NCBI GenBank assembly: GCA_003645845.1
Contig: QNCV01000001.1
Coordinates: forward strand, 1 to 28,975
DNA length: 28,975 nucleotides
Direction of reading: 5' to 3'
Origin: Fidelibacterota bacterium
Lineage (GTDB): Bacteria > Fidelibacterota > UBA2242
Part shown: piece after piece, positions 1,888 through 23,791 of the stretch
Layout of the letters: every line of letters begins with the position of its first letter
How positions within the stretch are numbered: the stretch's first letter is position 1
Notes under the pieces: model-generated
What the model saw: only the letters and a program-made list of their open reading frames with translations
Databases searched by the model: none
Told to the model about the DNA's origin: nothing
Program-made: the position numbers and the translations under genes

Positions 1888-1964
1888 TCCCTTTTCAAAA
1901 AAATATTGGTGTCTTTACTTTTTTCGATTATATTATCCGAATAGGAAATATAGGTTCAACACCA

Positions 1965-4124: not shown

Positions 4125-4666
4125 TCCTTCATCTCCTTTATATCCTCACCTGAACTTGACATTCGTTTCCGCTTGACGGATTCGATGACGGAGCGGATAA
4201 TAATGACCGGCAGGGCGATATAGAGAATGGCATTAATATACTGATCGCATAGATTACTGGGCCAGGGGAAGGGTTTAAAGATGAAAAAGTCGGTGGCATA
4301 TCCGATAAAAAGGATTTCCAGTATATTGCCGGTGGCGCCGATTGTCAGACTAAGGATTGCCGCATAGATAAAGCGATTGGCTCGGTCCAGATCTTCTTTG
4401 ATTAGTGAATGGATTAAAGAAACAAGCAGAATGGTAACAAATACCAGACCGGCCAACGCCCAGAGAAAATGGTTGTTAATATTGCCGAAAATAAAATGAT
4501 AACCGGTATTGTGGGTCCGGTAAAGATTCAGAAAGGGAAAGACCGTTTCCCGGACCTTTTCAAAGGGCAGATGGCGGTTGACTGTGGATTTGCTGAGAAT
4601 ATCTACTAAAAGCAAGAAAACTCCGATGATCACGGAAGTCAGAACTGTTTTGAATTTGGGCTTCAT
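4118..4666 (-). CDS. lspA: Signal peptidase II (LspA) family protein, divergent
   Basis: Four hydrophobic segments. Motifs VDILSK, NTG, IGATGN, ATDFF (catalytic Asp) and PWPSNLCD (second Asp). Confidence 0.8.
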   Translation of the reverse strand: MKPKFKTVLTSVIIGVFLLLVDILSKSTVNRHLPFEKVRETVFPFLNLYRTHNTGYHFIFGNINNHFLWALAGLVFVTILLVSLIHSLIKEDLDRANRFIYAAILSLTIGATGNILEILFIGYATDFFIFKPFPWPSNLCDQYINAILYIALPVIIIRSVIESVKRKRMSSSGEDIKEMKDQ

Positions 4667-4686
4667 GGTTTATCCTGGGTATAAGG

Positions 4687-5679
4687 TTAGCGATGGGAAC
4701 GGCGGTACTGGCTTAGAAAGCGGACCGGGTTTTCGTGGCTGCCCCGGATTTTCCGGAACATTTCGGTATAGATTTGATTGATTTCGGGAGATTTCTTTTC
4801 AGCTTCGGGATTCAGGATTAATCCGCGGAGAATACGGGCCCAGCCGGCGTTGAGTTCACCGCATTGAGCCTGGGCGGCGCCGAGAATAATATTACCGTTT
4901 TGGTTATCCGGATTACCGTATTTAGAGGCCTGAGAGATCAGGTTCAGAGCATAGGAATAGCGCTGTTGGCGGTAAGCGTTCCAGGCCAGGGCGGTGTAAA
5001 GGGTGTAATACGTCTGATTGCGGGCCGAATCCGAGATTGCCAAATATCGATTTTGGCGGATTCCGTGGATCAGGAAGCGGTTGGAAAGAGGTATCAGGCG
5101 TTGATCATGAAGGGACAGTATCTGATCCGAAAACTGTTTTAAGGTATCCACTTGATGATAGTCCGGTCGGATAATGACGTCCGCGTAATTTTCCAGGCTC
5201 CGATTGCGCAGACTGTCGGATTGAAAGCATGTGCTTAGATATGGAAAAACCACCAGGGCAATTCCCAGCGGATCGGGGTAAATTTCCTGATATATTTTTT
5301 TTTGATGATTCAATTGACGAATCCCGGCCGAATCGGTTGCCAGTATGTTGATCAGGAGGCTGTCCAGATAATTGCGGATTTCGGGGGAATGAACCATCAG
5401 GCGCTGTTTGAGAGTGAAAAAACACTTTTCATCGCTCTGCCCGTACTTGTTCCAGAGGGCCAGGGCGGACTCTATAGCTGGTTGCAGGCTGTCGCTTTCG
5501 GGATATTGCCGAAGGAAATCCAGTGTGGCCTGTAGCCGGCTTGAATCGGAATCGATGGTGGACAGGGCCTGAAATTGTTCGTGCTCGTGCCGGTGAGAAC
5601 AGGTCGTCAGACCGGTTACGATCACCAGGATCAGAAGAAAGGAAATTTGTTTTAAAACAGGCGGGTATTGACTATTCAC
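4687..5679 (-). CDS. Hypothetical exported helical/TPR-like protein, possible lipoprotein
   Basis: The ORF track starts at 5883, but that overlaps the upstream gene. An in-frame GTG at 5679 gives MNSQYPPVLKQISFLLILVIVTGLTTC (signal, atypical lipobox). The C-terminus has TPR-like helices. Confidence 0.6.
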   Translation of the reverse strand: MNSQYPPVLKQISFLLILVIVTGLTTCSHRHEHEQFQALSTIDSDSSRLQATLDFLRQYPESDSLQPAIESALALWNKYGQSDEKCFFTLKQRLMVHSPEIRNYLDSLLINILATDSAGIRQLNHQKKIYQEIYPDPLGIALVVFPYLSTCFQSDSLRNRSLENYADVIIRPDYHQVDTLKQFSDQILSLHDQRLIPLSNRFLIHGIRQNRYLAISDSARNQTYYTLYTALAWNAYRQQRYSYALNLISQASKYGNPDNQNGNIILGAAQAQCGELNAGWARILRGLILNPEAEKKSPEINQIYTEMFRKIRGSHENPVRFLSQYRRSHR

Positions 5680-5692
5680 AAATATCGATCGG

Positions 5693-6274
5693 TTATTTTT
5701 TCTTGATAATCCTGCGCCAGCCGAAGCCCGGAGAGCGTATCGGCATAAAGCCGGCGTCCACTGCCCGGACATCCTGCAGAGAAATGAAAATGTTAGGATC
5801 GATCTCCCGGGCGAGAGCGATTGCCTCTTTGACTTTACTGCGGGGTACCACGCATAAGATGATATTGACTGCACCTTTGGCACCGTTGGCTTTGATTACG
5901 GTAGCGCCGTACCCGGCATCCCGCAGCGCCATGGGTAAAATATCAATGGTATTCCGGGTGATGATGCGGATAATTTGCTGGCCCAGAGCGATTTTTTCTT
6001 CGATGGTGATGCCGATGTAATTACCGCAGGCAAAACCCAGACCGTAGGCCAGGAAACAGGCGACATTGGACAGATGTTGAAACACCTGTGAAATGGCCAA
6101 CAGCCAGATTGAAATCTCAATAAATCCGAGAAGGGCGGCAATCCCGCGTCTTCCTCTGGATATTAAGATAATCCGGAATGTGCCGATGGATACATCGGTA
6201 ACGCGAGCCAGGAAAATTAAAAGCGGGATTGCTATCCAGCTAAGGATCCAGGGATTATCGGTTAAAAACGGCAT
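5693..6274 (-). CDS. UPF0316 / DUF2179-DUF5698 family membrane protein
   Basis: IFLARVTDVSIGTFRIILISRG, LGFIEISIWLLAI and AYGLGFACGNYIGITIEEKIALG, followed by a soluble ACT-like C-terminal domain. Confidence 0.88.
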   Translation of the reverse strand: MPFLTDNPWILSWIAIPLLIFLARVTDVSIGTFRIILISRGRRGIAALLGFIEISIWLLAISQVFQHLSNVACFLAYGLGFACGNYIGITIEEKIALGQQIIRIITRNTIDILPMALRDAGYGATVIKANGAKGAVNIILCVVPRSKVKEAIALAREIDPNIFISLQDVRAVDAGFMPIRSPGFGWRRIIKKK

Positions 6275-6292
6275 CCGGGTATGATCCTGATT

Positions 6293-7267
6293 CTATTCAA
6301 AGAGTTCGATGTTACCGCCGGTGTGCAAAAAGACCACATTTTCATCGGGAGCAATTTTCCCCGATCGACAATAATCGATCAGACCGCTGGCTGCTTTTCC
6401 GGAGTAGACATGGTCCAGCAGAATCCCTTCATTCCTGGCAAATAGTTCAATGGCTTCTTCGGCGGCGTCGGTACGCTTTCCGTATCCTTTGCCAATATAG
6501 CGGTCATCTACGGTTACCAGGTCTCTGGAAATCTGAACATTGAGAAAGTTTCCGACGGACAGGGACAGATCATAGACATTTTTTTCCAGTTCTGGCTGCG
6601 GGACATCGACGCTGATACCAATTATTTTCCCGGACCAGCCGCTAATGGCCTGTCCGGCCACAAGTCCCGCCTGAGTTCCTGCTGATGACGAGGCGTGAAA
6701 TACTTTATCAACTCTGAGATTCAGGCGTTCGAAATCGTCCATCAGTTCTCCCCAGCCGGCTATATAGCCCAGAGCTCCGATGGTTGTGGAACCGCCGGGT
6801 GGCAGGAAATAGACCTTTTTACCATTATATTCGAGATTCTTACGGACCTCCAGGGCTTTTTCCATGCGTTCTTCCGGATCTGTGGTTTCGATATGATGAA
6901 CAGTGGCGCCGAAAAGGTGGTCCAGCAGCAGATTACCGGTGGGATTCTCAGGCTCTGAACCGTTCAGAATCAGGTGAACCGACAGACCGAATTTGGCGCC
7001 GACGGCGCTTAGAATCCGGCAGAAGTTGGATTGATTGGCGCCGATGCCGATAATCGTATCACAACCCTGAGCGATGGCATGCGGGACAAGGAAATCAAAT
7101 TTACGGGTTTTGTTTCCGCCAAAGGCAAAACCGGTCAGATCGTCCCGTTTGATATAAATATTCCGTTCCAGTAGTTCCGAGAGGGTTTCCAGTTTGTAAA
7201 ATGGGGTCGGCAGAACCGAAATGCTTTCACGGTCAAGGTGGGCCAGAACTTCATCTATTGCTTGCAT
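6293..7267 (-). CDS. D-cysteine desulfhydrase / ACC deaminase family PLP enzyme
   Basis: IYIKRDDLTG...GGNKTRK (PLP Lys), QSNFCR, LLDHVYSGKA, FLHTGG. GAGGAG ribosome-binding site on the minus strand. Confidence 0.92.
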   Translation of the reverse strand: MQAIDEVLAHLDRESISVLPTPFYKLETLSELLERNIYIKRDDLTGFAFGGNKTRKFDFLVPHAIAQGCDTIIGIGANQSNFCRILSAVGAKFGLSVHLILNGSEPENPTGNLLLDHLFGATVHHIETTDPEERMEKALEVRKNLEYNGKKVYFLPPGGSTTIGALGYIAGWGELMDDFERLNLRVDKVFHASSSAGTQAGLVAGQAISGWSGKIIGISVDVPQPELEKNVYDLSLSVGNFLNVQISRDLVTVDDRYIGKGYGKRTDAAEEAIELFARNEGILLDHVYSGKAASGLIDYCRSGKIAPDENVVFLHTGGNIELFE

Positions 7268-7294
7268 ATTAGCTCCTCAAATTAACCCTTGAAA

Positions 7295-7822
7295 TTACGA
7301 TGTTGTAACCTTTTTTAAAAGCATATCCGAATAGGATACCTTAATCAAATGCTCTTTTTTGATTTGCAGGCGATCCATCAGGCGTTGGCACTGACTCCGG
7401 AGCTCACGGTCACTGTGCCGTGGATTAGATGCGATCGCTTCTATTTCGATGAAAGTGCCGAGATTTTTTACGGTGTCGAGATGAATTTTGACATTATCCA
7501 GAAAATATATTTCCCGCTGTTTTTCGACAATGACCAGAGTATCCAGCGCGGCTGACAGAAGCCTTTCCAGCGTTTCCGGATCGGCACAGGGGTAGAGTAT
7601 AACTTCGGATAATTTGGGACCTGCCTGATTCCGGCGGTGGTAGTGGATCAGTTTTTTTTCAATCTGTCCCCGCCGTAACTTCAGACGTCCCCGGGAAACC
7701 TTGAAGTAGTGATCAATCTGATAATCGGTTCCGACAAATCGGGGTTGCAGTGCCCGGAGGATTCTTCGAGCTCCGTCAAGATCGGGACAGCGGGCTTTTA
7801 TTTCTCTGATTTTTACCGACAT
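7295..7822 (-). CDS. CYTH-domain protein, class IV adenylate cyclase (CyaB)-like
   Basis: N-terminal REIKAR, QIDHYF, RLKLRR, KQREIY, IHLDTVKNLGTFIEIE. The CYTH fold is supported; cyclase activity is not proven. Confidence 0.85.
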   Translation of the reverse strand: MSVKIREIKARCPDLDGARRILRALQPRFVGTDYQIDHYFKVSRGRLKLRRGQIEKKLIHYHRRNQAGPKLSEVILYPCADPETLERLLSAALDTLVIVEKQREIYFLDNVKIHLDTVKNLGTFIEIEAIASNPRHSDRELRSQCQRLMDRLQIKKEHLIKVSYSDMLLKKVTTS

Positions 7823-7953
7823 CGTGATGATAATCTAATAAAAATTATGATACTGCCCACTAACTTTTCCGAGCCTGAAGGGTTTCTCCGGAGTCCGGAA
7901 CGTTCTGTTAAATTATCTTGAATTATCAACTGAAAATAGGCATATTGTAACCT

Positions 7954-9237
7954 ATGAAGAAAGGTCGTTATAGTGCTCTGATATTAATTTTAGTGAGCAG
8001 TCTGGTTCTAAGGGCTGATCTGCCGGAGGGATTACGGTATAAGCGGCTCAAATCGGCGATCCCCACGTCCTATCGTTTTGATTTTAAACGGGCCCTTTCT
8101 TTTTTAAAGAAAGACCAGAACTACCAGGCGAAAATAATACTGGAACGCCTTGTGAAAACACACCCTGATTTTTACGTTTACTGGGCCTATGGTTATACGG
8201 AGCGGATGATGAATAATACAGCCAGTGCCCGCGCTCTGTATTTTAAAGCCTTTGAGATGAATGATTCTCTGCTGACTTTTTTGCGGGATTATGCTGATTT
8301 TGTTGAGGCAACCAGTGCGGAATGGCTTGTTGTCAGGCGGCTAACCCGGGCGCTTTACACCGCCCAGCCCGATGATTACCCTCTGATGTTTATGCTGGAT
8401 AAAGCCGTAGAAACCGGTCAGCAAAGTGCGGCGCTTGATTTTCTTCGGGAACTGGCCGAAACGCACCCCGGCGACACCAGAATCGGGGTCTTTCAGGCTG
8501 TGGTCCTCAGCTACCTGGGGCGTGGGACTGAGGCGGTACAGTCGGCCCTTGAGGTGGTTGAGGATACGGAAAGCCTGTTTCAATTGCAAATGCTGGAACG
8601 AATTCTGGCGAACAACGGCTATTTTGTGGAAGCCGCCGGGGCCTGTGAAAAAATGACCGGCATCGCAAAAAAATCTGCCGTTACGTATAGCGCCTGGGGG
8701 CATCTTGAATTCATGCAGGGTCATTATGAGAATGCGGTCACCTATTATCGGAAATCCTTGAATGCGGATTATCGTCCGAGCACTCTGATTAAACTGGCCC
8801 GGATTACTCTTTTATACCTGAATGATCCGAAGCAGGCGGTTTATTATGGAAAATCGGCCCTGCAGATTGATCGTCGGGAATCCGATGCCTGTTTTATCCT
8901 GGCGGAATCCTACCGCCGGCTGGCCAGGATGGACAAAGCTCTGGACTATTCAAGCCGCCTGCTCAAGCTCATGCCGGATCATCCTCATCCCTACTATTAT
9001 CACGGGAAACTGCTGTTTGAATTAAAACGCTATACCGAGGCGGTGACTTACCTGGAACAGGCTGTTGCACTAAGTCCGGAAGTGCAGCGTTACCGGCTAA
9101 TTCTGGCAAAAGCCTATGCAGGAGCCGGTCAAAAGGACAGAGCCAAAGCTATTTACACGAATTTTATTAACGAACCTATCGGCAATTTATGGTCCGAAGA
9201 AGAATTACTCAAAGAAGAACCTCCAGAGCCGCGTTAA
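7954..9237 (+). CDS. Exported tetratricopeptide-repeat protein
   Basis: Signal peptide (MKKGRYSALILILVSSLVLRA). Many TPR units, e.g. AWGHLEFMQGHYENAVTYYRKSL and YYHGKLLFELKRYTEAVTYLEQAVALSP. Confidence 0.85.
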   Translation: MKKGRYSALILILVSSLVLRADLPEGLRYKRLKSAIPTSYRFDFKRALSFLKKDQNYQAKIILERLVKTHPDFYVYWAYGYTERMMNNTASARALYFKAFEMNDSLLTFLRDYADFVEATSAEWLVVRRLTRALYTAQPDDYPLMFMLDKAVETGQQSAALDFLRELAETHPGDTRIGVFQAVVLSYLGRGTEAVQSALEVVEDTESLFQLQMLERILANNGYFVEAAGACEKMTGIAKKSAVTYSAWGHLEFMQGHYENAVTYYRKSLNADYRPSTLIKLARITLLYLNDPKQAVYYGKSALQIDRRESDACFILAESYRRLARMDKALDYSSRLLKLMPDHPHPYYYHGKLLFELKRYTEAVTYLEQAVALSPEVQRYRLILAKAYAGAGQKDRAKAIYTNFINEPIGNLWSEEELLKEEPPEPR

Positions 9238-13387: not shown

Positions 13388-14533
13388 GTGACTATGATCA
13401 AAAGCAAAGTCGTTGAAGAATTGATTCATTTTACTCAGAATGAGTATCCGGTAACCAGCGCTTATTTTACCCTGTCCAGTAAAGTCGGCAATCACAAAAC
13501 CAGTCTGGTTGAACTCAAAAAAATGATTCGTTACAAGAAGAATACGACCTATTTCAGGCAACTGAATGAAGTCGAGAAAAAATCGGTTTTAGCCGACTTC
13601 GAAAAAATTCTTAACTGGTTTGAAGAGGAACTGGATAGCTCAAAATATGTCAGCTCCATTTGCTTTTGTCAAAGCGGAACCGGTTTCTGGAAGGTTCGTA
13701 ATCTGCGGATTCCACTTCAGAATGAAATAATCATTCAGCCCAAACCCTCGATTTACCAACTGTCACAATTGTTCAGTCAATACAGTCGTTATGCGGTAGT
13801 TCTGGTGGATAAAAGCAAAGCCCGCATTTTTGAGCAGTCGCTGGGTGATTTTACCGAAATCTATGCCGTAGAGGACAATGCACCCGAGACTGTCAAAGTC
13901 GGGGGTTATCGTGGACGCCAGGAGCGTCGGGTCGAACGGAATATTAAAAAAGGGGTGGCGGAACATTACAAGGAGGTTGCCAATAAGATATTTGCTCTTA
14001 ATAAACGCCGGGATTTTAATTGGATTGTCCTGGGCGGCCGCCGGGAATCCGTCGGAAAGTTTCAAGGTATCCTGCATGATTACGTGGCTTCCAAAATTGC
14101 AGGAACGGTTGAAATTGAACCTCAGGCTCCCCTGAGCGAGGTCTTCAGTAAGGTTCAAAAGGCCGGTCTGAAGGCTCGCCGGAAGTATGAGACGGGACTG
14201 TTGGAAACTTTTAACAATAAAAAAACTGCCAACCAGGCCGTAGCCGGAATAGATGCGGTTTTACCGATGCTGCGGGATAATTGGGTGGATACTCTTTTAT
14301 TACAGGAGAATTACCGCCGTAAAGGGGTCTTTTGCCGGCATTGTCAGTATATCGATCTGTCGACGCACGCCGAGTGTCCAAAGCATGGCGGACCGCTTGA
14401 ACGAACCCATAATATAATCGAACATATGCTGCATAACGCCTTACTTCAGGGGGTTGATGTTCAATATCTGCAGCAATCGCTGGAGCAATACGGATATCTG
14501 GGCGCAATATTGCGCTTTCCTCTGACCTCCTGA
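13388..14533 (+). CDS. Bacterial archaeo-eukaryotic release factor (eRF1/aRF1-like, baeRF) family protein
   Basis: YAVVLVDKSKARIF, GG loop (VGGYRGRQERR), IVLGG, C-terminal eRF1 domain-3-like VDTLLL...CRHC...CPKHG...LGAILRF. GAGGAG ribosome-binding site. Confidence 0.85.
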   Translation: MTMIKSKVVEELIHFTQNEYPVTSAYFTLSSKVGNHKTSLVELKKMIRYKKNTTYFRQLNEVEKKSVLADFEKILNWFEEELDSSKYVSSICFCQSGTGFWKVRNLRIPLQNEIIIQPKPSIYQLSQLFSQYSRYAVVLVDKSKARIFEQSLGDFTEIYAVEDNAPETVKVGGYRGRQERRVERNIKKGVAEHYKEVANKIFALNKRRDFNWIVLGGRRESVGKFQGILHDYVASKIAGTVEIEPQAPLSEVFSKVQKAGLKARRKYETGLLETFNNKKTANQAVAGIDAVLPMLRDNWVDTLLLQENYRRKGVFCRHCQYIDLSTHAECPKHGGPLERTHNIIEHMLHNALLQGVDVQYLQQSLEQYGYLGAILRFPLTS

Positions 14534-14753: not shown

Positions 14754-15725
14754 ATGAAAGTCAAAATTCTTTTTGTAGCCTTTCTTCTATTTCCTCTGAT
14801 ACAGGGGTGTAGTCTCTTCAGCAGCGAGGCTGTTGACGAGACGGAAACCGAGACGCTTCAAACTGCTCAGTCGACGGACACAGTGGTAGCGCCAGCTACC
14901 GGCCAGGTGGTAACCAACAGTACACTAACGCCAACCCGGCAATCCCGCTCGGTGGCAACTGCCCCTGCCCGGACGACTCCTGCTGATCAGGATTATGTGG
15001 TCAACGAGCTGACCTTTGAAGTGAAAAAATTGTCTGCCGAGCTGAAACATGTGCAAAGTCAGCTGCAAGACCTGCAGGCCAACAGCCAGATGTGGATGAA
15101 TCCACTGGCCATGTATGACAAGGAAATCGTGACCGATAACGGTACATCAATCTACGGTAAAATTATCTACCAGGATGATAAAATTGTCAAAGTAGAGACC
15201 CTGATCGGTTATCTGGTGCTGGATAAATCATCAATTGTCCGGGTAATTACCAATGTTCCCGAAGAGCCGGCTCAGAAATATGTGCCTCAGGAACTGGTGA
15301 GTGAGGTCTCGCGAGGCACCAGCTATCCTCAGGTTCCCCAACCGGCCTATATCTCCAAATCCGGTGAACCGGCGCAGCTGCCGGAAAGTGCTGCCAAACT
15401 GCCCAATTGTGTACTGGTCGGCAATATCAGTGAGAAAAAAGATCGTTCCGGGAACACCATCTTTTCCGGTGAGGTTAAGAATATCGGTGCCCGGCGTGCG
15501 GATTTTGTGAAGGTTAATTTTATTTTTCGGAAAAACTGGAGCGGCGACACAAAAACCCGGACCGCTTTCGTGGAAGGTACCTATTTTACTTTCGAAGATT
15601 CCGGAATTACGACGAACAATTCACTGTTGCCGGGTGCGACCGGTAAATTTGAGCTGATCATTCCCAAGAATTTTGGCAGCTTCATCGGCTATTCCTACAC
15701 AATTGAGTGGGAGCAGTATAAATAA
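14754..15725 (+). CDS. Lipoprotein: Thr-rich linker, coiled coil, small beta domain, C-terminal FxLYD-like Ig domain
   Basis: Lipobox IQGC (Cys19). Coiled coil NELTFEVKKLSAELKHVQSQLQDLQ. C-terminal GEVKNIG...VKVNF...LLPGATGKFEL resembles FxLYD domains. The stop overlaps the next start (TAATG). Confidence 0.7.
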   Translation: MKVKILFVAFLLFPLIQGCSLFSSEAVDETETETLQTAQSTDTVVAPATGQVVTNSTLTPTRQSRSVATAPARTTPADQDYVVNELTFEVKKLSAELKHVQSQLQDLQANSQMWMNPLAMYDKEIVTDNGTSIYGKIIYQDDKIVKVETLIGYLVLDKSSIVRVITNVPEEPAQKYVPQELVSEVSRGTSYPQVPQPAYISKSGEPAQLPESAAKLPNCVLVGNISEKKDRSGNTIFSGEVKNIGARRADFVKVNFIFRKNWSGDTKTRTAFVEGTYFTFEDSGITTNNSLLPGATGKFELIIPKNFGSFIGYSYTIEWEQYK

Positions 15726-16528
15726 TGCATTTACCATTCACTAAGATTGCCGGTTTGTCGTTTTTACTAATGGGATTCGCTTTTTCTCAAACCGACTCGA
15801 CTTTGATTGATATTTCTGAAAAAAAAGCGAAGCTGAACGAGAAGAATGTTCAGATGCTGGAATTGCAGTCCGATATCAGCAGTCATGACGAAGAGCTTCG
15901 GGCTATTCGGGATGAAATTGAAAAACTGAAAGCCTATAATCGGCGACTTCAGGATTCTTTGCTAACCAAACAGGCGGAGATTGATTCGCTGAAAGAGCAG
16001 CAGAACCAGGTGGAAAATTTTAAGATGATCGTCAATGCGTTTGACGAAGACAAAGCCCTGACCGATGAAATCCTGGAGTCAATTAAAAGCTCTGATGTGG
16101 CGCCGAAGGATACGGTGGCGACCGTTACTCTGGAGGAAACTCCGGATGATACGGAGTACCGGACACTATACAACGAAGCGCTTAATCTATATTTTGATCG
16201 GGATTATAAGTCCAGTATTGGCAAATTCAGAGAACTATTAACCCGCAGTCGGAAACATCCCCTGGCAGATAACTGCCAGTACTGGTTGGGTGAAAACTAT
16301 TATTCTCAGGAAAATTATTCCCAGGCAATTGCGGAATTTCAGAAAGTTGCTCCCCTGGGTGACGGTAATAAGGCGGATGCCGCTCTGTTTAAAATCGGGA
16401 TGAGCCAGCTGAAGATGGGACAGGACGCCTCCGCCCGGGAAACCTTTACCCGGCTGGAAAAACAGTTTCCCGACAGCGATTTGCTGGATAAAGCCCGGCA
16501 ATATTTAACGTCCCGGGAAAAGTTTTGA
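15725..16528 (+). CDS. CpoB/YbgF-like periplasmic coiled-coil plus TPR protein
   Basis: Signal peptide and long coiled coil, then YNEALNLYFDRDY, LADNCQYWLGENYYSQENYSQAIAEFQKV and KADAALFKIG, which are typical YbgF TPRs. Confidence 0.82.
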   Translation: MHLPFTKIAGLSFLLMGFAFSQTDSTLIDISEKKAKLNEKNVQMLELQSDISSHDEELRAIRDEIEKLKAYNRRLQDSLLTKQAEIDSLKEQQNQVENFKMIVNAFDEDKALTDEILESIKSSDVAPKDTVATVTLEETPDDTEYRTLYNEALNLYFDRDYKSSIGKFRELLTRSRKHPLADNCQYWLGENYYSQENYSQAIAEFQKVAPLGDGNKADAALFKIGMSQLKMGQDASARETFTRLEKQFPDSDLLDKARQYLTSREKF

Positions 16529-17277
16529 AAGGATATGTTTGTAAGGTAATTTTAATGCTTTGTCTGCCCCTAATCTTAGACGCTCAGGAAAGCGATACGA
16601 CGCGGGGTAAAACCGACAAAAGTTTCATGTACGATTTAGGAATCAAGATTGAGCCAGCGAGGGAGTCTGCCCCCCTTCAAGGCATTGGCGTTGCTAACCC
16701 AAGTTTGGTTCGACTACAGAGCCAAATGGACTCCCTCACCTCGGCTTTTTCAATGTATAAGCAGGATACCGACCGGCGTATTACAGAACTGGATCAAGCG
16801 CTTGATTCTGTGAAGCTGGTAAACAGGCAACTTGAAAAGCGGATTTATTTATCACCCTATGCATCGGCGGGAAATCCTCGTTTAATTTATTCAAAAAAAG
16901 AAGGAGAGCGCTTTTTTCAAAAGGGCACGGATGCCTATAACGCTCAAAATTATCCGGTTGCGGTGGATTATTTCCGGAAATGTATTGATAGTGAGGCCGG
17001 CGGTAGCCTGATCGGGGATGCCTATTTCTGGGTTGGTAACAGTTATATTCATCTCAAAGACGAATATCTGGCGCTGGAATATCTCAAACGGGTACCGGAA
17101 TATCCGCTATGTAAGAATATTGACGATGCACTTTTTCTGACGGCGGTTACCTACCGGAAACTGGGTGATGCAGAGATGGCCAGATTTTTTTTAGAGAGGC
17201 TGCTCAGGCGTTTTCCCGATGGGGAGATGGCCAAACTGGCTCTATTGGAGTTAAAGCGACTGAAGTCTATGGATTGA
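16525..17277 (+). CDS. Second CpoB/YbgF-like coiled-coil plus TPR protein
   Basis: TTG start overlaps the previous TGA. Signal peptide and coiled coil, then DAYFWVGNSY and DDALFLTAVTYRKLGD...LLRRFPDG. Confidence 0.75.
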   Translation: MKGYVCKVILMLCLPLILDAQESDTTRGKTDKSFMYDLGIKIEPARESAPLQGIGVANPSLVRLQSQMDSLTSAFSMYKQDTDRRITELDQALDSVKLVNRQLEKRIYLSPYASAGNPRLIYSKKEGERFFQKGTDAYNAQNYPVAVDYFRKCIDSEAGGSLIGDAYFWVGNSYIHLKDEYLALEYLKRVPEYPLCKNIDDALFLTAVTYRKLGDAEMARFFLERLLRRFPDGEMAKLALLELKRLKSMD

Positions 17278-17299: not shown

Positions 17300-18640
17300 A
17301 TGATAAAACGTACTTATATTCTGTTACTAATCATTCTGATACTGACGGTTTCGGCGTTGGGGCAGATAACGCGGGTCGCTTTTACCAAACCAGGATATAT
17401 GATGAAAATCCCGACCAGCAGTATCTATCGGACCCCCTATATTTTCCGCACCGGGATCAGCACCGATATTTACGGATTTGCCGATACCCTGATTACGCGG
17501 GGCGTCTTTTTCGAAACCGATCTGTCCAACACGTTTAAGATTGGCGTTACGTCGATTCAGGGGTTGGGAACGAGTCCTCCGGTGGAATTTGGCCTCCATT
17601 TTCAAAAACGGCTATTCGTCTATGGCGATATCAGTTTCTCGGCCGGCATTCATGATCTCGTGTTGAAGCAGGGAGATAAAGAACTGAACATTGATACCAG
17701 GACCCTGTCGATTTTTGGGGTCATCAGTAATGAAAAACAATTTGAAAACAGCAGCATGTCTACCTATATGGGCTTTGGTACCGGTGGTTTGGCAACCGGG
17801 TTCGGGAGTGACTCGGCGACCAGTGCCGGCGTGTTTGCGGGGATTTTGCTGCATACCAATATCATGGCCGAGCGCGGCGGTGTCGAATTCATCGGTGAAT
17901 TTGATGGTGGCGGAATTAACGCTGGTGTGCGGATTCCCTTTACCAAGGACTACAATCTCTCACTGGGTGTCAATAATCTGGTTAAACTGTATAATTTCGG
18001 CGCGGAGGATTTTGACCTGACTAATGTCAGTGATTATCCCAGTCTGAATATCGGCCTTGACTTTCGGATTCCACGGGTCAAGCCCGAAAGCGCCCGGAGG
18101 CGCCGGCTGGAAGGCATGGTGGACGATGAATCCCAGATGGTTCTGGATATGGAAGAACAGTTTGCGATGAAGTTGGATTCGACTCTGAAAGCTGCGGATT
18201 TTGAAATTGCCAAACTGAAAGATTCTTTGCGGGTCTTTGAGTCTGAGATCAAATATCTGACCAGTGAAGTTGCTCAGCTGCGCCAGAAAACCGCAGTTTT
18301 GGAGGATTCGGTTCGTTCGGCAAAACTGGCCAGACACGCCATGGAGCAGAACATCAACCTGGCGCTTAAGCATCTCTCCCGTTCACTACGCTATTTCTAC
18401 GCCGGTGATTACCGGGAAGCGCTGCAGGAAGTCGAAGCGGCGATTGATCTGAATCCGAATCTGGCTCTGGCCTATGCCCGCCGGGGTTCGATCTATTATA
18501 AACTGGGCGATATTGACCGGGCCACCATCAACTGGAACCTGGCCCTGCGGATAGATCCCGAGTACGATGATGTTCGCAATATTTTGAGAGCCCTTAACGA
18601 AAACCGTCTCAGAAGCACAGGGTCGACTCGAAAGGAATAA
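17300..18640 (+). CDS. Outer-membrane beta-barrel (YjbH-like) fused to a coiled coil and C-terminal TPRs
   Basis: Signal peptide. Residues ~45-257 are Gly/aromatic alternating beta strands including EFDGGGINAGVRIPF. Residues ~265-352 are heptad-rich. Residues 353-425 are canonical TPRs (NPNLALAYARRGSIYYKLGD). Confidence 0.7.
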   Translation: MIKRTYILLLIILILTVSALGQITRVAFTKPGYMMKIPTSSIYRTPYIFRTGISTDIYGFADTLITRGVFFETDLSNTFKIGVTSIQGLGTSPPVEFGLHFQKRLFVYGDISFSAGIHDLVLKQGDKELNIDTRTLSIFGVISNEKQFENSSMSTYMGFGTGGLATGFGSDSATSAGVFAGILLHTNIMAERGGVEFIGEFDGGGINAGVRIPFTKDYNLSLGVNNLVKLYNFGAEDFDLTNVSDYPSLNIGLDFRIPRVKPESARRRRLEGMVDDESQMVLDMEEQFAMKLDSTLKAADFEIAKLKDSLRVFESEIKYLTSEVAQLRQKTAVLEDSVRSAKLARHAMEQNINLALKHLSRSLRYFYAGDYREALQEVEAAIDLNPNLALAYARRGSIYYKLGDIDRATINWNLALRIDPEYDDVRNILRALNENRLRSTGSTRKE

Positions 18641-18650
18641 GGATTAGTTT

Positions 18651-19439
18651 ATGGATATTGCAAGTTTATTAGGTATTTTAGCCGGCATTGGTTTAATTGT
18701 TCTGGGAATTTACCAGCTCACTCCCAACTTTATGATTTTTGTCAGTATGGCCAGCTTGCTGATCGTGGCCGGCGGTTCCTTTGCGGCCACTCTGCTGAGT
18801 TTTTCACTCAGCGATGTGTTTGGCCTGCTGCGCTCCGCCTTTGCGGTCTTTAAAAAACAGAAGATCGATCTGCCGGCGGAGGTGGACGCCATCGTGGAGC
18901 TGGCGCCGATTGCCCGCAAGAGCATGCAGGAGCTGGAAAAATCATTGGTCAATGTCAGGAACTACTTCCTTCGGGACGGTTTACAGATGGTGGTGGATGG
19001 CTATAACCCGGATGAAATCCGGGAAATCCTGGAAACCCGAATCGAAAACCGGATCCTTCGTGAAAAAAGCGAGGCCAATGTGCTGCGGACCATGGGCAAA
19101 TATTCCCCGGCTTTCGGAATGATCGGAACCCTGATCGGTCTGGTGGTGATGCTTTATGGGATGGCGGACATGGCCGGTGGCGGTGAAGACCCCATGGCCG
19201 TGCTGGGCGCCGGAATGGGCGCGGCGCTGATCACGACCTTTTACGGCACGATCCTGGCAAATATGTTTTTTAATCCCATGGCCGAAAAATTTGAAACCCG
19301 GATCAAAAAACAGACAACGATGCAACAGATGCTGATTGAGGGAACGTTGCTTATTCATGCACGTAAGCATCCTCTGATTGTCCGGGAAAAATTGAATTCC
19401 TATCTGAGGCCGCGGGATTGGAAGAAACCTGAGGAATAG
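18651..19439 (+). CDS. motA: Flagellar-type stator A subunit (MotA/PomA)
   Basis: MDIASLLG start, LLIVAGGSFAATL, ARK...LE, FLRDGLQMVVDG, SPAFGMIGTLIGLV, ALITTFYG, NMFFNPMAEK, PLIVREKLNSYL. Confidence 0.93.
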   Translation: MDIASLLGILAGIGLIVLGIYQLTPNFMIFVSMASLLIVAGGSFAATLLSFSLSDVFGLLRSAFAVFKKQKIDLPAEVDAIVELAPIARKSMQELEKSLVNVRNYFLRDGLQMVVDGYNPDEIREILETRIENRILREKSEANVLRTMGKYSPAFGMIGTLIGLVVMLYGMADMAGGGEDPMAVLGAGMGAALITTFYGTILANMFFNPMAEKFETRIKKQTTMQQMLIEGTLLIHARKHPLIVREKLNSYLRPRDWKKPEE

Positions 19440-19446
19440 AGCGTAA

Positions 19447-20133
19447 ATGACTGAAAAGGCGGCTCGTAAAAAGAAAAATTTATATGCTGAAGAGGGCGGC
19501 AAAGAGGCCGAACCGTGGCTGTTGACCTACGGTGATATGATGACGCTTCTGATGACCTTCTTCGTGCTGCTGTTTTCCATGAGCACCATAGATCCGGTGA
19601 AGCTGGAACAGTTCAGTGATTCCATGGGGCAGGCTCTGGGAAAGAAAACCAAGGCCAAAAAATATTCCCTGGCGGAAATCTACAAGGATGTCGTTAAGGT
19701 TATCGAGGAAGAATCTCTTCAGGATCAGATTCAGGTGGAGACCAGTGAAAGGGGTGTCGCCATTAAAATTCCCAGCGAGATTTCCTTTGGTGTCGGTAGC
19801 GCCGATTTAGATCCCCGCATTTATCCGATTTTAAATAAGTTTGTCGATATGATGCAAAAATCAACCTACCCGATTGCCATTGAGGGGCATACCGATAATG
19901 TTCCCATGCGTTCAGCCGTGTTTCCGTCGAACTGGGAGCTTTCGGCGGCCCGGGCCGCCCAGGTGGTGCGTTATTACATCAATCAGGGAATTTCATCGGA
20001 ACGGTTTCAGGCCATTGGGTATGCGGATACCCGGCCCCGGGCCCGCGGGGCTACTATTGCGGAAGCCAACGCAACTTCGGCGCAGAGAGACATGAACCGC
20101 CGGGTTGAAATTTTCTTTCTGACAATTCAATAA
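19447..20133 (+). CDS. motB: Flagellar-type stator B subunit (MotB/PomB) with OmpA-like peptidoglycan-binding domain
   Basis: WLLTYGDMMTLLMTFFVLLFSMS (ion-binding Asp30), plug helix, IEGHTD, NWELSAARA, NRRVEI. Confidence 0.93.
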   Translation: MTEKAARKKKNLYAEEGGKEAEPWLLTYGDMMTLLMTFFVLLFSMSTIDPVKLEQFSDSMGQALGKKTKAKKYSLAEIYKDVVKVIEEESLQDQIQVETSERGVAIKIPSEISFGVGSADLDPRIYPILNKFVDMMQKSTYPIAIEGHTDNVPMRSAVFPSNWELSAARAAQVVRYYINQGISSERFQAIGYADTRPRARGATIAEANATSAQRDMNRRVEIFFLTIQ

Positions 20134-20149
20134 ATTTAGGAGACATGCA

Positions 20150-21622
20150 ATGCTCAAGAGTCGGAAATATATGAATACAATAGCGGCGCTCTGTATCATC
20201 CTGCTGATGATCTCCCAACAGGCGCTGTCTCAGGAAAATCAGATGTCCTATCTCTCCCAGAAACTGATGCTGGAAAACAGCATTCGTGAGCGGGTGGCGG
20301 ATGCTCTGGATAAACTTCTTGATGATATAAAGTTTGTAGTGGATGTCGCTGTGGAACTGGAGTTTAAGGTGCCGGAGAGAACCGTTACCGAAACCCAGCC
20401 CCTTACTCGGCAGGAAACTCCGACCACTCCAGCGAAGGCGGCTTCAAATGTATTGACGGCGCAGGAATCAACAACAAAACCTGCATCAAAACAGGGCAGT
20501 GCTGATCTGGGATTACCATTGCCGGGATTTGAAACTCCTGAGGATGTAGTCCGAACCGAAGAGAAAACCACACCGGTTCTGAAAGAGGGTCCGCCGACTG
20601 AATCCGAGACATCGGAAACGTCGACAACTACCGTAACTCCGGCTCAGCAACCAGCCGGAATTGTTAGCAAGACGGTTCAGGCAGGCAGGGCTGTACCGGT
20701 TGTCAAACGGCAACAGGTCAACATCATTATGGAAGACGGTGTTACGCCTGAAATTATTGAAAATGTTCGTCAGGTTGCAGCAATTGCGTCCCACTATGAC
20801 CGCACCCGGGGGGATGTGATCAGTGTAATGACTGCATCATTTAAAAAACGGGAAAAACAGGATGGCGCCGAAGCCGTTATTTTAAAGAATATTGCTGAGA
20901 AAATTGATGATCTGGAACGTCGTCAACAGCGTGCCGAACAGGAAGCCCGGATTGAAGCCCAGAAGCGGATTGAGCGTCAGGCCGTGGTGCGGGATTCACT
21001 GCGAATTCAGGAATTACGGAAGCAGATTGCCGATTTACAGAACCAGCTTCAGGCTCCCATGTTACCTGATGACCAGAGGGCTCGGACCGAAGCCATGGCC
21101 AGTGCACGGGAAACCGAATTGGCGAATCTCAAAGAGCAGCTGCGGGAAAGTAACCGGCGGCTCCAGGAACTTGAGATGGGCGCTATGGAGACGATTCCGC
21201 CGCGCTTTATTCGCTCTGATAATCTGGCGCTATACATCATTTTAGGTCTTTTTGTCATTGCTCTGTTGATATTGCTGATCCTTTTACTGGTGAATCGAAG
21301 AAATCATCAAAAACGTCAGGAACTGGAATGGGGCTATGGCACGAAAGTCCCGATGGGCCCCAGACCGCAGCCGGCAGCCCGGCCGCAACCCCAGACACCG
21401 CCGACCGCACCGCCACCTGTTCAACCCGAAGCTCCGGCTGCACCACAAGCACCGTCGGTACAGGCACCATCGGTTGATCCTGCCGCCCTGAAGGAAGAGA
21501 TGAAAAGCATTAAACAATCGGTCATTTCCATGAGTGTTGGTCAGCCCGATACGGCCTCGCGGGTAATTAACGAATGGCTGGGACAGACGAAAAAAACCGA
21601 AGAGTCCGAATCGGAATTCTAA
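20150..21622 (+). CDS. FliF-like (M-ring C-terminal/RBM3-like) protein with signal peptide, periplasmic coiled coil, single TM and cytoplasmic FliG-binding tail
   Basis: LENSIRERVADAL..FVVDVAVELEF and KRQQVNII...IENVRQVAAIASHYDRTRGDVISV resemble the split RBM3 of FliF. The C-terminal QPDTASRVINEWL resembles the FliF tail. It lies directly upstream of fliG. Confidence 0.72.
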   Translation: MLKSRKYMNTIAALCIILLMISQQALSQENQMSYLSQKLMLENSIRERVADALDKLLDDIKFVVDVAVELEFKVPERTVTETQPLTRQETPTTPAKAASNVLTAQESTTKPASKQGSADLGLPLPGFETPEDVVRTEEKTTPVLKEGPPTESETSETSTTTVTPAQQPAGIVSKTVQAGRAVPVVKRQQVNIIMEDGVTPEIIENVRQVAAIASHYDRTRGDVISVMTASFKKREKQDGAEAVILKNIAEKIDDLERRQQRAEQEARIEAQKRIERQAVVRDSLRIQELRKQIADLQNQLQAPMLPDDQRARTEAMASARETELANLKEQLRESNRRLQELEMGAMETIPPRFIRSDNLALYIILGLFVIALLILLILLLVNRRNHQKRQELEWGYGTKVPMGPRPQPAARPQPQTPPTAPPPVQPEAPAAPQAPSVQAPSVDPAALKEEMKSIKQSVISMSVGQPDTASRVINEWLGQTKKTEESESEF

Positions 21623-21635
21623 GAAGGAGTGTAAT

Positions 21636-22568
21636 ATGGTAGATTTTAAAAACCTCGACGGTTTAGATAAAGTGGCCATCCTGTTTAAAACCCTGGGTAA
21701 CAACCTGGCCCTGCAACTATTTAAGGGTATGACAAAAGACCAGATTCGCAAAGTCCGGGAACGAATGAGCAGCATTAATAATATACCCTTTACAGTGAAA
21801 AAGGAGATTCTGGAGGAATTTTATTTCGGCTTTGTTTCGGAAAAATTTTCTCCACCTACCGAAGAGACAAAAAAGCCCTTTGAATTTTTACTTAATATGA
21901 CCGATGAGCAGGTCGTTTATCTGATTGCTACGGAGACACCGCGCATTATGGCTCTGGCCATTGCTCAGCTGCCGGTGGATCGACAGGTGAATGTGCTTCA
22001 GGCTCTTGACCCCACCATTCAGCCCAAAGTGATGACCGAAATCGGTCATCTGGGTGATATCCCTCTGGAGGGGGTGGTCAGCATTGCCAATGAATTGAAA
22101 GAAAAATCCGCTTTTATCCCCAGGGCGTCGGAATTCAACCGGGGTGGCGGAGAAAATCTGGCCGGGATTCTCAGCCAAATGCGTCCCAGGGATGAAAAAC
22201 GTTTTCTGGAACATCTGGAAAAAGAGGCTCCGGATGTGGTTCAGGAAGTTAAACGTCACTATTTCAGTTTTGAGGATTTGCCTAAACTGCCACATGATAT
22301 CCTGGCGGATGTGCTGAAATCCGTAGAAGCTTCTGAGGTGGCCTACGCTCTCAAGGGACAGCCTGAAGAAATGAAAGAGTTGTTTATCAATTCGCTGCCC
22401 CAGCGAACCCAGATTATTCTGGAAGATGAAATGGAATTGCTGGAGGGTCCCCAGCCCCGCCGCAAAGTCGAAGCCGCCCAGAAGGCGATTGTGGACAAAG
22501 CCCGGGAACTGGAGAAAGAGGGTCGTTTTCGGCTGGAAGATTTTATGGAAGCCGATTTTATCGAGTAA
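21636..22568 (+). CDS. fliG: Rotor/switch protein FliG homolog (310 aa)
   Basis: GLDKVAILFKTLG (FliG-N), PFEFL, ETPRIMALAI (FliG-M), GGENLAGIL, FSFEDL, ALKG...PQR...EDE...GP...VEAAQKAI (FliG-C). Confidence 0.92.
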   Translation: MVDFKNLDGLDKVAILFKTLGNNLALQLFKGMTKDQIRKVRERMSSINNIPFTVKKEILEEFYFGFVSEKFSPPTEETKKPFEFLLNMTDEQVVYLIATETPRIMALAIAQLPVDRQVNVLQALDPTIQPKVMTEIGHLGDIPLEGVVSIANELKEKSAFIPRASEFNRGGGENLAGILSQMRPRDEKRFLEHLEKEAPDVVQEVKRHYFSFEDLPKLPHDILADVLKSVEASEVAYALKGQPEEMKELFINSLPQRTQIILEDEMELLEGPQPRRKVEAAQKAIVDKARELEKEGRFRLEDFMEADFIE

Positions 22569-22624: not shown

Positions 22625-22657
22625 ACTGCACAAATCAAAATAGTGAAAGAGATACAA

Positions 22658-23791
22658 ATGCATCGGTTGATTTGCTTCGGACAGTGGGCAATTATCCTGA
22701 TAATCTTGTCCTTTGGATTACATGCCCAGACCGCTGAAATTCAGGAAGCCCGGTTGCAGGAGGCCCTGAAGGCCATGAACCGAATGGAGCATGAAAAGGC
22801 GGTGGCCCTTTTTCAGGAAGTTGCCCTGAATCAGCCGTATCATCCACTGGGCTCTTTTGGTGCGCTGGCAAACCGGTGGATTGTGAATCAGGGTAAATAC
22901 GGCTATCGCGCCGGAAACAGGGAACTTTTGGAAGATGTCGATGCCGTAATTATCGATTTCCGGCGTCGTTTGGTCGCAAATCCGGACGATGCGGAGCTTA
23001 AATATTACATCGGATTGTGCAACGGTTTGCGCGCCCGGGTGCTGTTGGCCGAGAAAGACTGGATTGGTGTTCTGGTCAGTGGTTACCGGATTATCCGCAA
23101 TTTTAAATCCGTATTGAGAGACAATTCCAAGGATCCCGACATTGTGATTGCCTTCGGCGTGTTCAATTATTATGTCGGTTTGTCGTCGGGATTTATGAAA
23201 ATCGCCTCTTGGATCATGCATCTCTCGGGCTCCAAAGAAGAGGGCTTGCAGCAAATTGAATTTGCAGCTCTTAAGGGAAATTACTGCCGTTACGAAGCCC
23301 GCAGCATTCTGGCTTATCTGAATCTTTATTTTGAATCCGATTACCCTGCCGCAAAACGCTGGCTGGATATGCTGATTGCCGAATTTCCCGAAAATCCCTA
23401 TTACAACTTTCTTTATGCAGAGTATAATGTCCGTACCGGTAATCCGGATATCGACATTTACCTCCGACTGATCCGTCAGCGTCTCGACAGTCTCGATCCC
23501 TTTTTTCGGCAAGAGTATGTGCAGCGCCTGCGGCTTCTGGAGGGCAGCCAGGCTCTGCTGCAGCATGATCTGGATAAGGCAGAGGGAAAACTGCTGAGTT
23601 TTTTGGAGCATTTTGATTCAGAAATGGATTATGATCTGGCCAGCGCCTATCTGCGCTTGGGTCAGCTCTACGATCTTCGCCACGAGCGTCAAAAAGCCCG
23701 GGAGTACTATCAGAAAACCGTGAATCTTGATAATCGCAGCGCTGCGGTGCTGGAAGCAAAAAAATATCTGGATACACCGTATTTGCAGTAA
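22658..23791 (+). CDS. Exported TPR-containing helical protein of unknown function
   Basis: ATG at 22658 is preferred over GTG at 22643. Signal peptide ending LHA-Q. C-terminal TPR AYLRLGQLYDLRHERQKAREYYQKTV. Confidence 0.75.
   Translation: MHRLICFGQWAIILIILSFGLHAQTAEIQEARLQEALKAMNRMEHEKAVALFQEVALNQPYHPLGSFGALANRWIVNQGKYGYRAGNRELLEDVDAVIIDFRRRLVANPDDAELKYYIGLCNGLRARVLLAEKDWIGVLVSGYRIIRNFKSVLRDNSKDPDIVIAFGVFNYYVGLSSGFMKIASWIMHLSGSKEEGLQQIEFAALKGNYCRYEARSILAYLNLYFESDYPAAKRWLDMLIAEFPENPYYNFLYAEYNVRTGNPDIDIYLRLIRQRLDSLDPFFRQEYVQRLRLLEGSQALLQHDLDKAEGKLLSFLEHFDSEMDYDLASAYLRLGQLYDLRHERQKAREYYQKTVNLDNRSAAVLEAKKYLDTPYLQ

Follow-up and report, generated by a model that had tools for sequence, protein, structure and literature searches.

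We analysed a stretch of 28,975 nucleotides (nt; hereafter the window), positions 1 to 28,975 of contig QNCV01000001.1 from a Fidelibacterota bacterium (assembly GCA_003645845.1), in which an operon of co-directional plus-strand genes joins flagellar-type stator and rotor genes to a gene for a predicted outer-membrane protein. This protein, for which we coin the name BCT after its succession of barrel, coiled coil and tetratricopeptide repeats (TPRs), is encoded at nt 17300-18640 by an open reading frame (ORF) of 446 amino acids (aa), is present in single copy in the window's genome and is the sole integral outer-membrane protein predicted from the cassette. A Shine-Dalgarno-like GGAG lies 5' of its ATG, and 10 nt separate its stop codon from the ATG of motA. 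Upstream, a core partner gene (nt 14754-15725) encodes a 323-aa lipoprotein, in which a lipobox and a disordered tether precede a helix (aa 76-115), a small SH3/Sm-like barrel and, at aa 219-320, an Ig-like sandwich, and it is followed by two accessory genes (nt 15725-17277) for CpoB/YbgF-like proteins that combine a coiled coil with TPRs. Downstream lie motA (PomA/MotP-like) and motB, whose product has a plug and an OmpA-like domain (together nt 18651-20133), and the rotor genes for a 490-aa FliF-like protein and a 310-aa FliG (nt 20150-22568); the FliF-like protein matches only YscJ_FliF_C, and FliG has N, M and C domains. As argued below, BCT probably links this flagellum-independent rotary motor to the cell surface.

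Domain anatomy of BCT

All structures discussed here are predictions. The AlphaFold2 model of BCT, built on 43 homologs with a mean predicted local distance difference test (pLDDT) score of 77, runs from a helix at aa 2-19 through an unstructured segment into twelve long strands at aa 47-258 (pLDDT ~80), then through a disordered stretch at aa 263-289 into an 83-residue helix at aa 286-368 and four more helices that end at aa 441. A Sec-type signal peptide (aa 1-21, nt 17300-17362) was called by reading the sequence together with the first model helix, no dedicated predictor being used; it has K3, R4 and a hydrophobic run of about 11 residues, carries no lipobox Cys and is putatively cleaved at SALG/Q. 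The segment that follows (aa 22-46, nt 17363-17437) is conserved in the ortholog alignment as T-R-V-A-[YF]-T-R-P-G-x-M-M-K-I-P-T-S-S, P38 being invariant and P31, G32 and M34 being kept in 45-46 of 47 orthologs. It has low pLDDT and takes no confident structure or position in the model, and it may act as a plug or as a docking peptide.

The twelve strands form a predicted outer-membrane beta-barrel (aa 47-258, nt 17438-18073). When aa 49-258 were compared by VIA-align with solved 12-strand outer-membrane barrels, KdgM was the best fold match (Z 17.7, root-mean-square deviation 2.1 Å, 162/171 residues), and NanC (Z 16.2), FapF (15.8), LpxR (15.3) and the autotransporter barrels EstA (15.6) and NalP (15.2) also matched; Foldseek returned the same families. 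Across the 47 orthologs the strands are amphipathic, with a mean face difference of 2.83 hydropathy units as against 1.53 +/- 0.35 (maximum 2.56) for equal-length stretches in the helical half of the protein. The connections alternate between short ones of 2-4 aa (9 aa in one case) and loops of 7-22 aa (4 aa in one case), as is typical of periplasmic turns and external loops, and this alternation, together with the even strand count, puts the start and the end of the barrel on the periplasmic side. Conservation is higher on the lumen face than on the lipid face (means of 0.70 and 0.60), and the lumen holds ten near-invariant glycines plus conserved E96, H100, Q102, E200 and N207; such a glycine-rich, conserved lumen would leave space for a polypeptide inside the barrel. 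The last strand follows the pattern P-[GAS]-h-[TS]-h-G-h-D-h-x-h-P-R, where h stands for a hydrophobic residue; it resembles an internal beta-signal made of G252 (43/47), h253, D254, M/F255, x, V/I257 and P258. The signal peptide, the even number of amphipathic strands and this beta-signal together predict that BCT is an outer-membrane beta-barrel protein.

The initial annotation of the window had described nt 17432-18070 (aa 45-257) as a YjbH-like beta-strand region. The strands are borne out, twelve of them at aa 47-258, and the structure prediction and strand count that it had proposed give a 12-strand barrel rather than a soluble domain; membership in the YjbH family did not hold up. A Pfam search with aa 20-285 gave no match even at E <= 10, PF06082 included, and PF06082 is outside the 25 most-matched families of the 43 BCT orthologs scanned at E <= 1. 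Resemblance to YjbH is seen only in Atlas features (0.93, with 179 shared features) and in Atlas shape (TM 0.67 over 234 aa), and a search of the AlphaFold database returned YjbH in one row (row 17), with other barrel families scoring equally well. The YjbH-likeness of BCT is thus at most a resemblance of fold and not family membership. The same annotation had remarked that the chain lacks the aromatic C-terminal signal for the beta-barrel assembly machinery. The C-terminus is indeed polar in 47/47 orthologs, but this is no anomaly, because the last barrel strand carries the internal beta-signal-like motif, as in OmpA-type proteins.

Several known barrels provide useful comparisons. OmpA-type proteins are built like BCT, in that the barrel comes first, has an internal beta-signal in its last strand and is followed by a periplasmic domain at the C-terminal end, and the Atlas shape neighbours of BCT include barrel+OmpA and PorP+SPOR proteins; BCT differs from the OmpA type in having 12 strands instead of 8 and a coiled coil with TPRs instead of a peptidoglycan-binding domain, and the two have no sequence similarity. 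FapF (PDB 5O65) likewise combines a 12-strand barrel with a periplasmic coiled coil and a plug segment adjoining the barrel; however, it has no TPRs, its identity to BCT is 7% and its operon is different. The coiled coil of FapF is N-terminal and trimeric. The sugar-specific porins KdgM and NanC (PDB 4FQE, 4PR7 and 2WJQ) have 8-9% identity to BCT and lack a periplasmic extension. A profile search of PDB sequences with BCT matched the TPRs only, not the barrel.

Behind the barrel, a flexible periplasmic linker (aa 259-288, nt 18074-18163; pLDDT <50) varies in length from 18 to 35 aa among the orthologs and has a mean identity of 19%, expressed here and for all other modules as the mean identity to the window's copy across 46 orthologs. 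The linker leads into a coiled coil of 8 unbroken heptads (aa 289-345, nt 18164-18334), which lies within the long helix and keeps a single heptad phase with scores of 0.38-0.64. Leu occupies 51% of the cells at position d, whereas L, V, I and M predominate at position a, where residue 331 is conserved as polar; the make-up of the a and d residues fits a dimer or a trimer. Heptads had been reported before over about 85 aa (nt 18092-18355, aa 265-352), and they are real, but they extend over only about 57 aa, the first 25-30 residues of that interval being disordered, poorly conserved linker.

The helix then continues into two TPRs and a capping helix (aa 346-441, nt 18335-18622). TPRs had already been noticed at nt 18356-18574, and Pfam matches over cut-off now confirm two repeats plus a capping helix that ends at aa 441: TPR_2 (PF07719) scores 41.9 bits against a cut-off of 27, TPR_1 (PF00515) 34.8 against 27.8 and TPR_11 35.6 against 26.8, and all 43 BCT orthologs scanned match TPR families. 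Weak, sub-threshold matches were obtained to PilW, NlpI, Tgl and BatC. Structurally, the module is near small peptide-binding TPR domains at Z ~15, a value that for helical repeats is near noise and so shows the fold only. The coiled coil is 57 aa long in 39/47 orthologs, and the junction, the two TPRs and the cap together measure 96 aa in 46/47; given these constant lengths, coiled coil and TPRs behave as a rigid unit of fixed size. The model thus agrees with the initial description of an outer-membrane-anchored rod with a periplasmic TPR domain, in that the barrel is N-terminal, the termini are predicted to be periplasmic and the length of coiled coil plus TPR is fixed, and BCT is best regarded as a predicted outer-membrane barrel that carries a rigid stalk and, at the end of it, a highly conserved docking domain. 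The residues 3' of the cap (nt 18623-18637) commonly form an acidic ending among orthologs (S-F-x-E-E, T-S-I-V-E-E); the window's copy has no such motif and ends in STRKE.

CpoB/YbgF of the Tol-Pal system resembles BCT in having a periplasmic coiled coil followed by TPRs and in working with a MotAB-family motor, and differs in having no barrel. BCT does not match the CpoB equivalog TIGR02795, and the two adjoining CpoB-like genes score 81.3 and 46.8 bits, below its cut-off of 90.1. Homology of the C-terminal half of BCT to these adjoining proteins was considered and rejected (BLASTP E 7 and 0.029; hhalign E 0.018).

Synteny, distribution and conservation of the cassette

We compared 45 loci from about 25 Marinimicrobia families and one Tara contig, 46 in all. 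In every one of them the gene order is lipoprotein, 0-2 CpoB-like genes, BCT, motA, motB, FliF-like gene and fliG, and BCT and motA lie 2-21 nt apart. That BCT homologs might mostly occur apart from the motor genes, a possibility that the initial annotation had named as counting against its reading, is not what was found, since motA, motB, the FliF-like gene and fliG accompany BCT in 46/46 loci. Even the remotest homologs, with 24-28% identity in the barrel, keep the order of the cassette. The CpoB-like genes are dispensable and BCT is not; one contig (L065) has a minimal operon of six genes without them, with an 8-nt overlap between the lipoprotein gene and BCT.

Some neighbouring features have a narrower distribution. 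A 382-aa TPR protein encoded after fliG (nt 22643-23791) occurs in only 6/45 loci, all from the window's closer relatives (families f1-f3), and therefore stands outside the core cassette. Upstream of the operon (nt 13388-14533) is a bacterial aeRF1-like gene (baeRF_family10, kin to ribosome hibernation or release factors), whose position is kept in 11/45 loci, namely those of closer relatives plus three loci from two remoter families. Many lipoprotein orthologs were called at 380-409 aa with a CarboxypepD_reg-like domain (PF13620), which is not found in the window's 323-aa copy; the ortholog starts that were chosen may have shortened some lipoproteins. In the FliF-like protein, an invariant P-[IL]-P-G-[FIL] (aa 123-127, nt 20516-20530), with P125 and G126 present in 46/46, sits within an otherwise unconserved, disordered periplasmic insertion. 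Its [IL]-P-G-[FIL] part was considered as a ligand of the TPRs and dropped as a possible remnant of the canonical FliF collar motif.

An exhaustive HMMER search with the BCT barrel against 1.84 billion representative sequences returned only 104 proteins, of which the full-length ones have about 440-470 residues; every context looked at lies within the motor operon, and the named homologs are all from Marinimicrobia, Neomarinimicrobiota or Fidelibacterota. A contig scan gave 254 relatives, and the names among the 80 listed are only Marinimicrobia, Neomarinimicrobiota, Fidelibacterota and 'FCB group'. Within the phylum, a sample of 301 genomes has the BCT barrel in 199, FliG_C in 227 and FlhA, counted over its cut-off, in 67. 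The phyletic co-occurrence proposed in the initial annotation is confirmed, in that the barrel tracks FliG_C family by family: both are found in 0/30 genomes of family f12, in 0/22 of genus g22 and in 39/42 of family f20, the exceptions being families whose FliG is flagellar. Ten FlhA-negative genomes have a FliG match but no barrel match; two of these contain BCT fragments at contig ends, two contain the sister family described below and six give a weak generic TPR match or none.

FlhA is found in 44 of the 199 barrel-positive genomes (22%) and in 23 of the 102 barrel-negative ones (23%), so that BCT shows no co-occurrence with flhA of the kind expected of a part of the flagellar basal body. 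Four genomes that are closed or nearly so (G029, G206, G239 and G063) contain a single FliG, that of the operon, and neither FlhA nor rod genes; the closed genome G134 contains both the flagellar system and the operon. The BCT cassette is thus unrelated to flagellar status. The window's genome also has FlhA and a second, better-scoring flagellar-type FliG, on contigs C11 (7616-9568) and C139 (3778-4098). FlhA had no match in any of the six genomes of the same genus that were searched, and these contigs are either foreign to the bin, whose contamination is estimated at 2.84%, or belong to a flagellum peculiar to this strain. A literature search found no description of the BCT protein or its operon. 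A survey of MotAB relatives makes no mention of such cassettes (PMC12505986), and in Vibrio fischeri motA2B2 is not required for swimming (PMC3948606).

Conservation is unevenly spread over the operon. Mean identity is highest in the BCT TPR module (79%), followed by the BCT N-terminal segment (56%), MotA (53%), MotB and the lipoprotein (47% each), FliG (46%), the BCT barrel (44%), the BCT coiled coil (42%), the FliF-like protein (31%) and the linker. The slowest-evolving modules of the operon are the BCT TPRs (mean distance 0.32) and then the C-terminal Ig-like domain of the lipoprotein (0.44).

A TPR module shared by two barrel families

Two Marinimicrobia genomes that have no BCT barrel, G034 and G062, encode ORFs of 489-495 aa that score 72-74 bits on the BCT profile, on which generic TPR proteins score 20-30 bits. 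The C-terminal part of the G034 ORF aligns with BCT aa 278-432 at 27% identity (E 6e-17), and the ORF gives weak Pfam matches to outer-membrane barrels (TraF_2, FadL/Toluene_X). Fifteen relatives of it in the database have precomputed PorV, PorP_SprF, OMP_b-brl or Toluene_X matches, and two are named Cloacimonetes. When BCT was aligned to this sister family by hhalign, only the last 84 columns, those of the TPRs, aligned (probability 99.5, E 3.3e-22, 35% identity), compared with E 0.011 and 0.018 for BCT and two generic TPR proteins of the window. [quoted passage not shown] Thus, the alignment confined to the TPRs and the contexts of the two genes show one TPR module on two unrelated barrels, each in a FliG/MotAB cassette. 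This second type of cassette, consisting of a FliG_C protein, MotA, MotB, a large FG-GAP/Big_5 protein with CHU_C and a barrel-TPR protein of about 490 aa, was found at L147 (G034:C29:12500-22567, genes 1418-9090), L150 and L151, and it occurs in the Marinimicrobia genus g37, in a metagenome-assembled genome labelled Cloacimonetes and in metagenome contigs.

Barrels with these neighbours recall the gliding machinery of Bacteroidota. There, type B cargo with a C-terminal sorting domain (CTD) is held at the surface by its cognate PorP/SprF barrel (PMC9143113), and SprF is bonded, through a short C-tail in the periplasm, to the GldK lipoprotein of a motor-moved track, so that barrel and adhesin are propelled through the outer membrane (PMC12635249). 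SprF/PorP and BCT are both barrels with a periplasmic C-terminal extension that couples, or in BCT would couple, to a structure driven by a MotAB-family motor, and both systems have an outer-membrane lipoprotein as partner, GldK/PorK in the one and, as a candidate, the operon lipoprotein in the other; in addition, the sister family lies beside CHU_C cargo as sprF lies beside sprB. In contrast, the BCT barrel belongs to an unrelated 12-strand family with no match to PF11751, the PorP/SprF family, and precomputed PF11751 and PF19572 matches are found only in the sister family; the extension of BCT is a coiled coil with TPRs and not a short twin-cysteine tail, and in its motor a FliG/FliF-like ring and a stator of flagellar type take the place of GldLM. 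The window's genome contains SprA fragments (for example C44:51-509 and C195:6-1196) and 83 matches to the Por_Secre_tail sorting domain, and it therefore belongs among the bearers of the T9SS. For a genome of 2.8 Mb, 83 such matches mean a very large secretome.

The initial annotation had likened BCT in logic to the Agl-Glt system of Myxococcus. What remains of that comparison is a MotAB-family motor linked to barrels and TPRs; family membership was rejected (GltE 15.4 bits against a cut-off of 225, Tgl 21 against 225), and in Agl-Glt (GltA/B/H/K, GltC, GltE) barrel and TPRs are on separate proteins and there is neither FliG nor FliF. By analogy, SprF/PorP with its GldK track would be the closer working model of BCT.

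Proposed role of BCT and alternative explanations

Our data suggest a model, to which we give a probability of about one half, whereby BCT is an outer-membrane adaptor or carrier that is coupled to the motor by its TPRs and works like SprF in Bacteroidota gliding. BCT would then be the outer-membrane end of a six-gene rotor-stator machine made of lipoprotein, BCT, MotA, MotB, FliF-like protein and FliG. After export by Sec, the 12-strand barrel would be inserted into the outer membrane through its internal beta-signal-like last strand, leaving both ends of the chain facing the periplasm. The linker would lead to the coiled coil of eight heptads, which is probably paired with that of a second copy into a stalk of about 9 nm, and the stalk would continue straight into the two-TPR module, well below the outer membrane. 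There the TPRs would be the coupling element and dock on a periplasmic partner in the motor, the lipoprotein being the first candidate and the FliF-like ring or MotB coming next, while the barrel would form the membrane or cargo side and perhaps hold the operon lipoprotein. The force of MotAB on the FliG/FliF-like ring would be passed to the outer membrane or braced against it, depending on whether the barrel is moved or stays fixed, in a manner comparable to SprF-SprB on the GldK track. In a more specific and, in our view, rather doubtful form of this idea, the MotAB-driven ring would propel barrel-TPR carriers laterally together with the lipoprotein or a giant adhesin, so that the whole would be a surface machine derived from the flagellar motor. 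The initial annotation had offered output, bushing and gated pore as possible roles of BCT; the presence of the same TPRs on a barrel beside giant surface proteins leans towards an output adaptor.

Several considerations weigh against a SprF-like adaptor. The window's operon has no gene for a CTD-type (CHU_C) cargo, and the SprF analogy reaches BCT through the shared TPRs alone, the two barrels being unrelated. Since MotB has its own peptidoglycan-binding domain, the stator needs no anchor in the outer membrane. For the lipoprotein as the partner the evidence is weak. Rate covariation within the operon gives a hint of it only, because the pairs are non-independent: with the shared trend removed, the residual covariation peaks between the lipoprotein's middle domain and the BCT barrel (r 0.50), while the TPRs and the C-terminal domain of the lipoprotein reach r 0.27 and the known pair of FliF C-terminus and FliG 0.25; with MotB it is negative (TPRs r -0.10, barrel r -0.40). 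Complex prediction with lipoprotein aa 76-323 and mature BCT aa 22-446 gave a score of 0.59 (runs of 0.59, 0.18 and 0.61; best control 0.00), which is weak support; where no strong prior exists, support of this sort turns out wrong more often than right. At least 5% of contacts agree between the runs, and the partner pLDDT is at least 72. The score mark was reached by 58/80 solved complexes and by 2/110 mismatched pairs; at scores of 0.60 or lower it was reached by only 7 of the 80 and by both mismatches that passed, and these counts are approximate because our own alignments were used. The fold matches of the lipoprotein itself are generic (SH3/Sm-like and Ig-like, Z <= 7.9).

The position of BCT directly 5' of motA, at the short distance seen in all 46 loci, would also be expected of a static scaffold, in which the TPRs bind periplasmic MotB or keep the stator ring in register and an immobile BCT merely anchors the assembly through its barrel. 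TPR or Sel1-like repeat (SLR) proteins hold stators in three flagellar lineages, the known scaffolds being Campylobacter PflA/PflB, Vibrio MotX/MotY and Borrelia FlcA, and the fixed-length stalk of BCT does resemble a spacer. We nevertheless consider such a scaffold unlikely, for neither the TPRs nor the barrel covary in rate with MotB, MotB carries an OmpA-like anchor of its own, and the gene of the homologous sister TPRs follows that of a giant surface protein and not motA. A different role, as a gated pore whose lumen is plugged by the N-terminal segment or by a partner's tether and opened by the motor for secretion or uptake, could draw on the fold matches to FapF and to autotransporter barrels (Z 15.2-15.6), which are pores with a plug or helix, on the conserved glycines, charges and overall conservation of the lumen, on the near-invariant P-G-x-M-M-x-I-P core of the N-terminal segment and on the disordered tether of about 60 aa in the lipoprotein. 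This role appears improbable to us, however, as the N-terminal segment has no confident position in the model, the best fold matches, KdgM and NanC, are plain porins, a polar and conserved lumen is usual in small barrels and the operon has no gene for a substrate.

BCT could, finally, be an envelope factor of general function (Tol-Pal/CpoB-, BamD- or NlpI-like), co-transcribed with the motor without being physically linked to it, as its CpoB-like neighbours and the sub-threshold TPR matches to envelope proteins might indicate. The distribution of BCT makes this very unlikely: BCT is never apart from the motor genes, in the 46 loci or in distant homologs, its presence tracks FliG across families, its barrel family is confined to the few proteins recovered from the representative set, all of them within the operon where the context was looked at, and it is the CpoB-like genes that are dispensable. 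We prefer an adaptor that couples the motor to the cell surface through its TPRs, which are both the best-conserved module of the operon and the part shared with the sister family.

We know of no outer-membrane energy-transfer machine that uses a FliG/FliF ring; to our knowledge, the ion-motive machines that reach the outer membrane (Ton, Tol, T9SS/gliding and Agl-Glt) use MotAB-family stators on a periplasm-spanning protein. Because BCT is the sole integral outer-membrane part of the machine and its TPRs are the best-conserved module, it offers a natural handle on the machine's function, and the occurrence of the same TPRs beside giant adhesin-like proteins turns an orphan motor into a testable idea, namely that what the motor drives is at the cell surface. 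In the dark ocean, Marinimicrobia (SAR406) rank with the most abundant bacteria, and they are mostly without flagella. If carriers are indeed propelled in the way considered above, these bacteria would possess surface motility or active attachment to particles, and such a new motility or attachment device would bear on particle colonisation and carbon flux.

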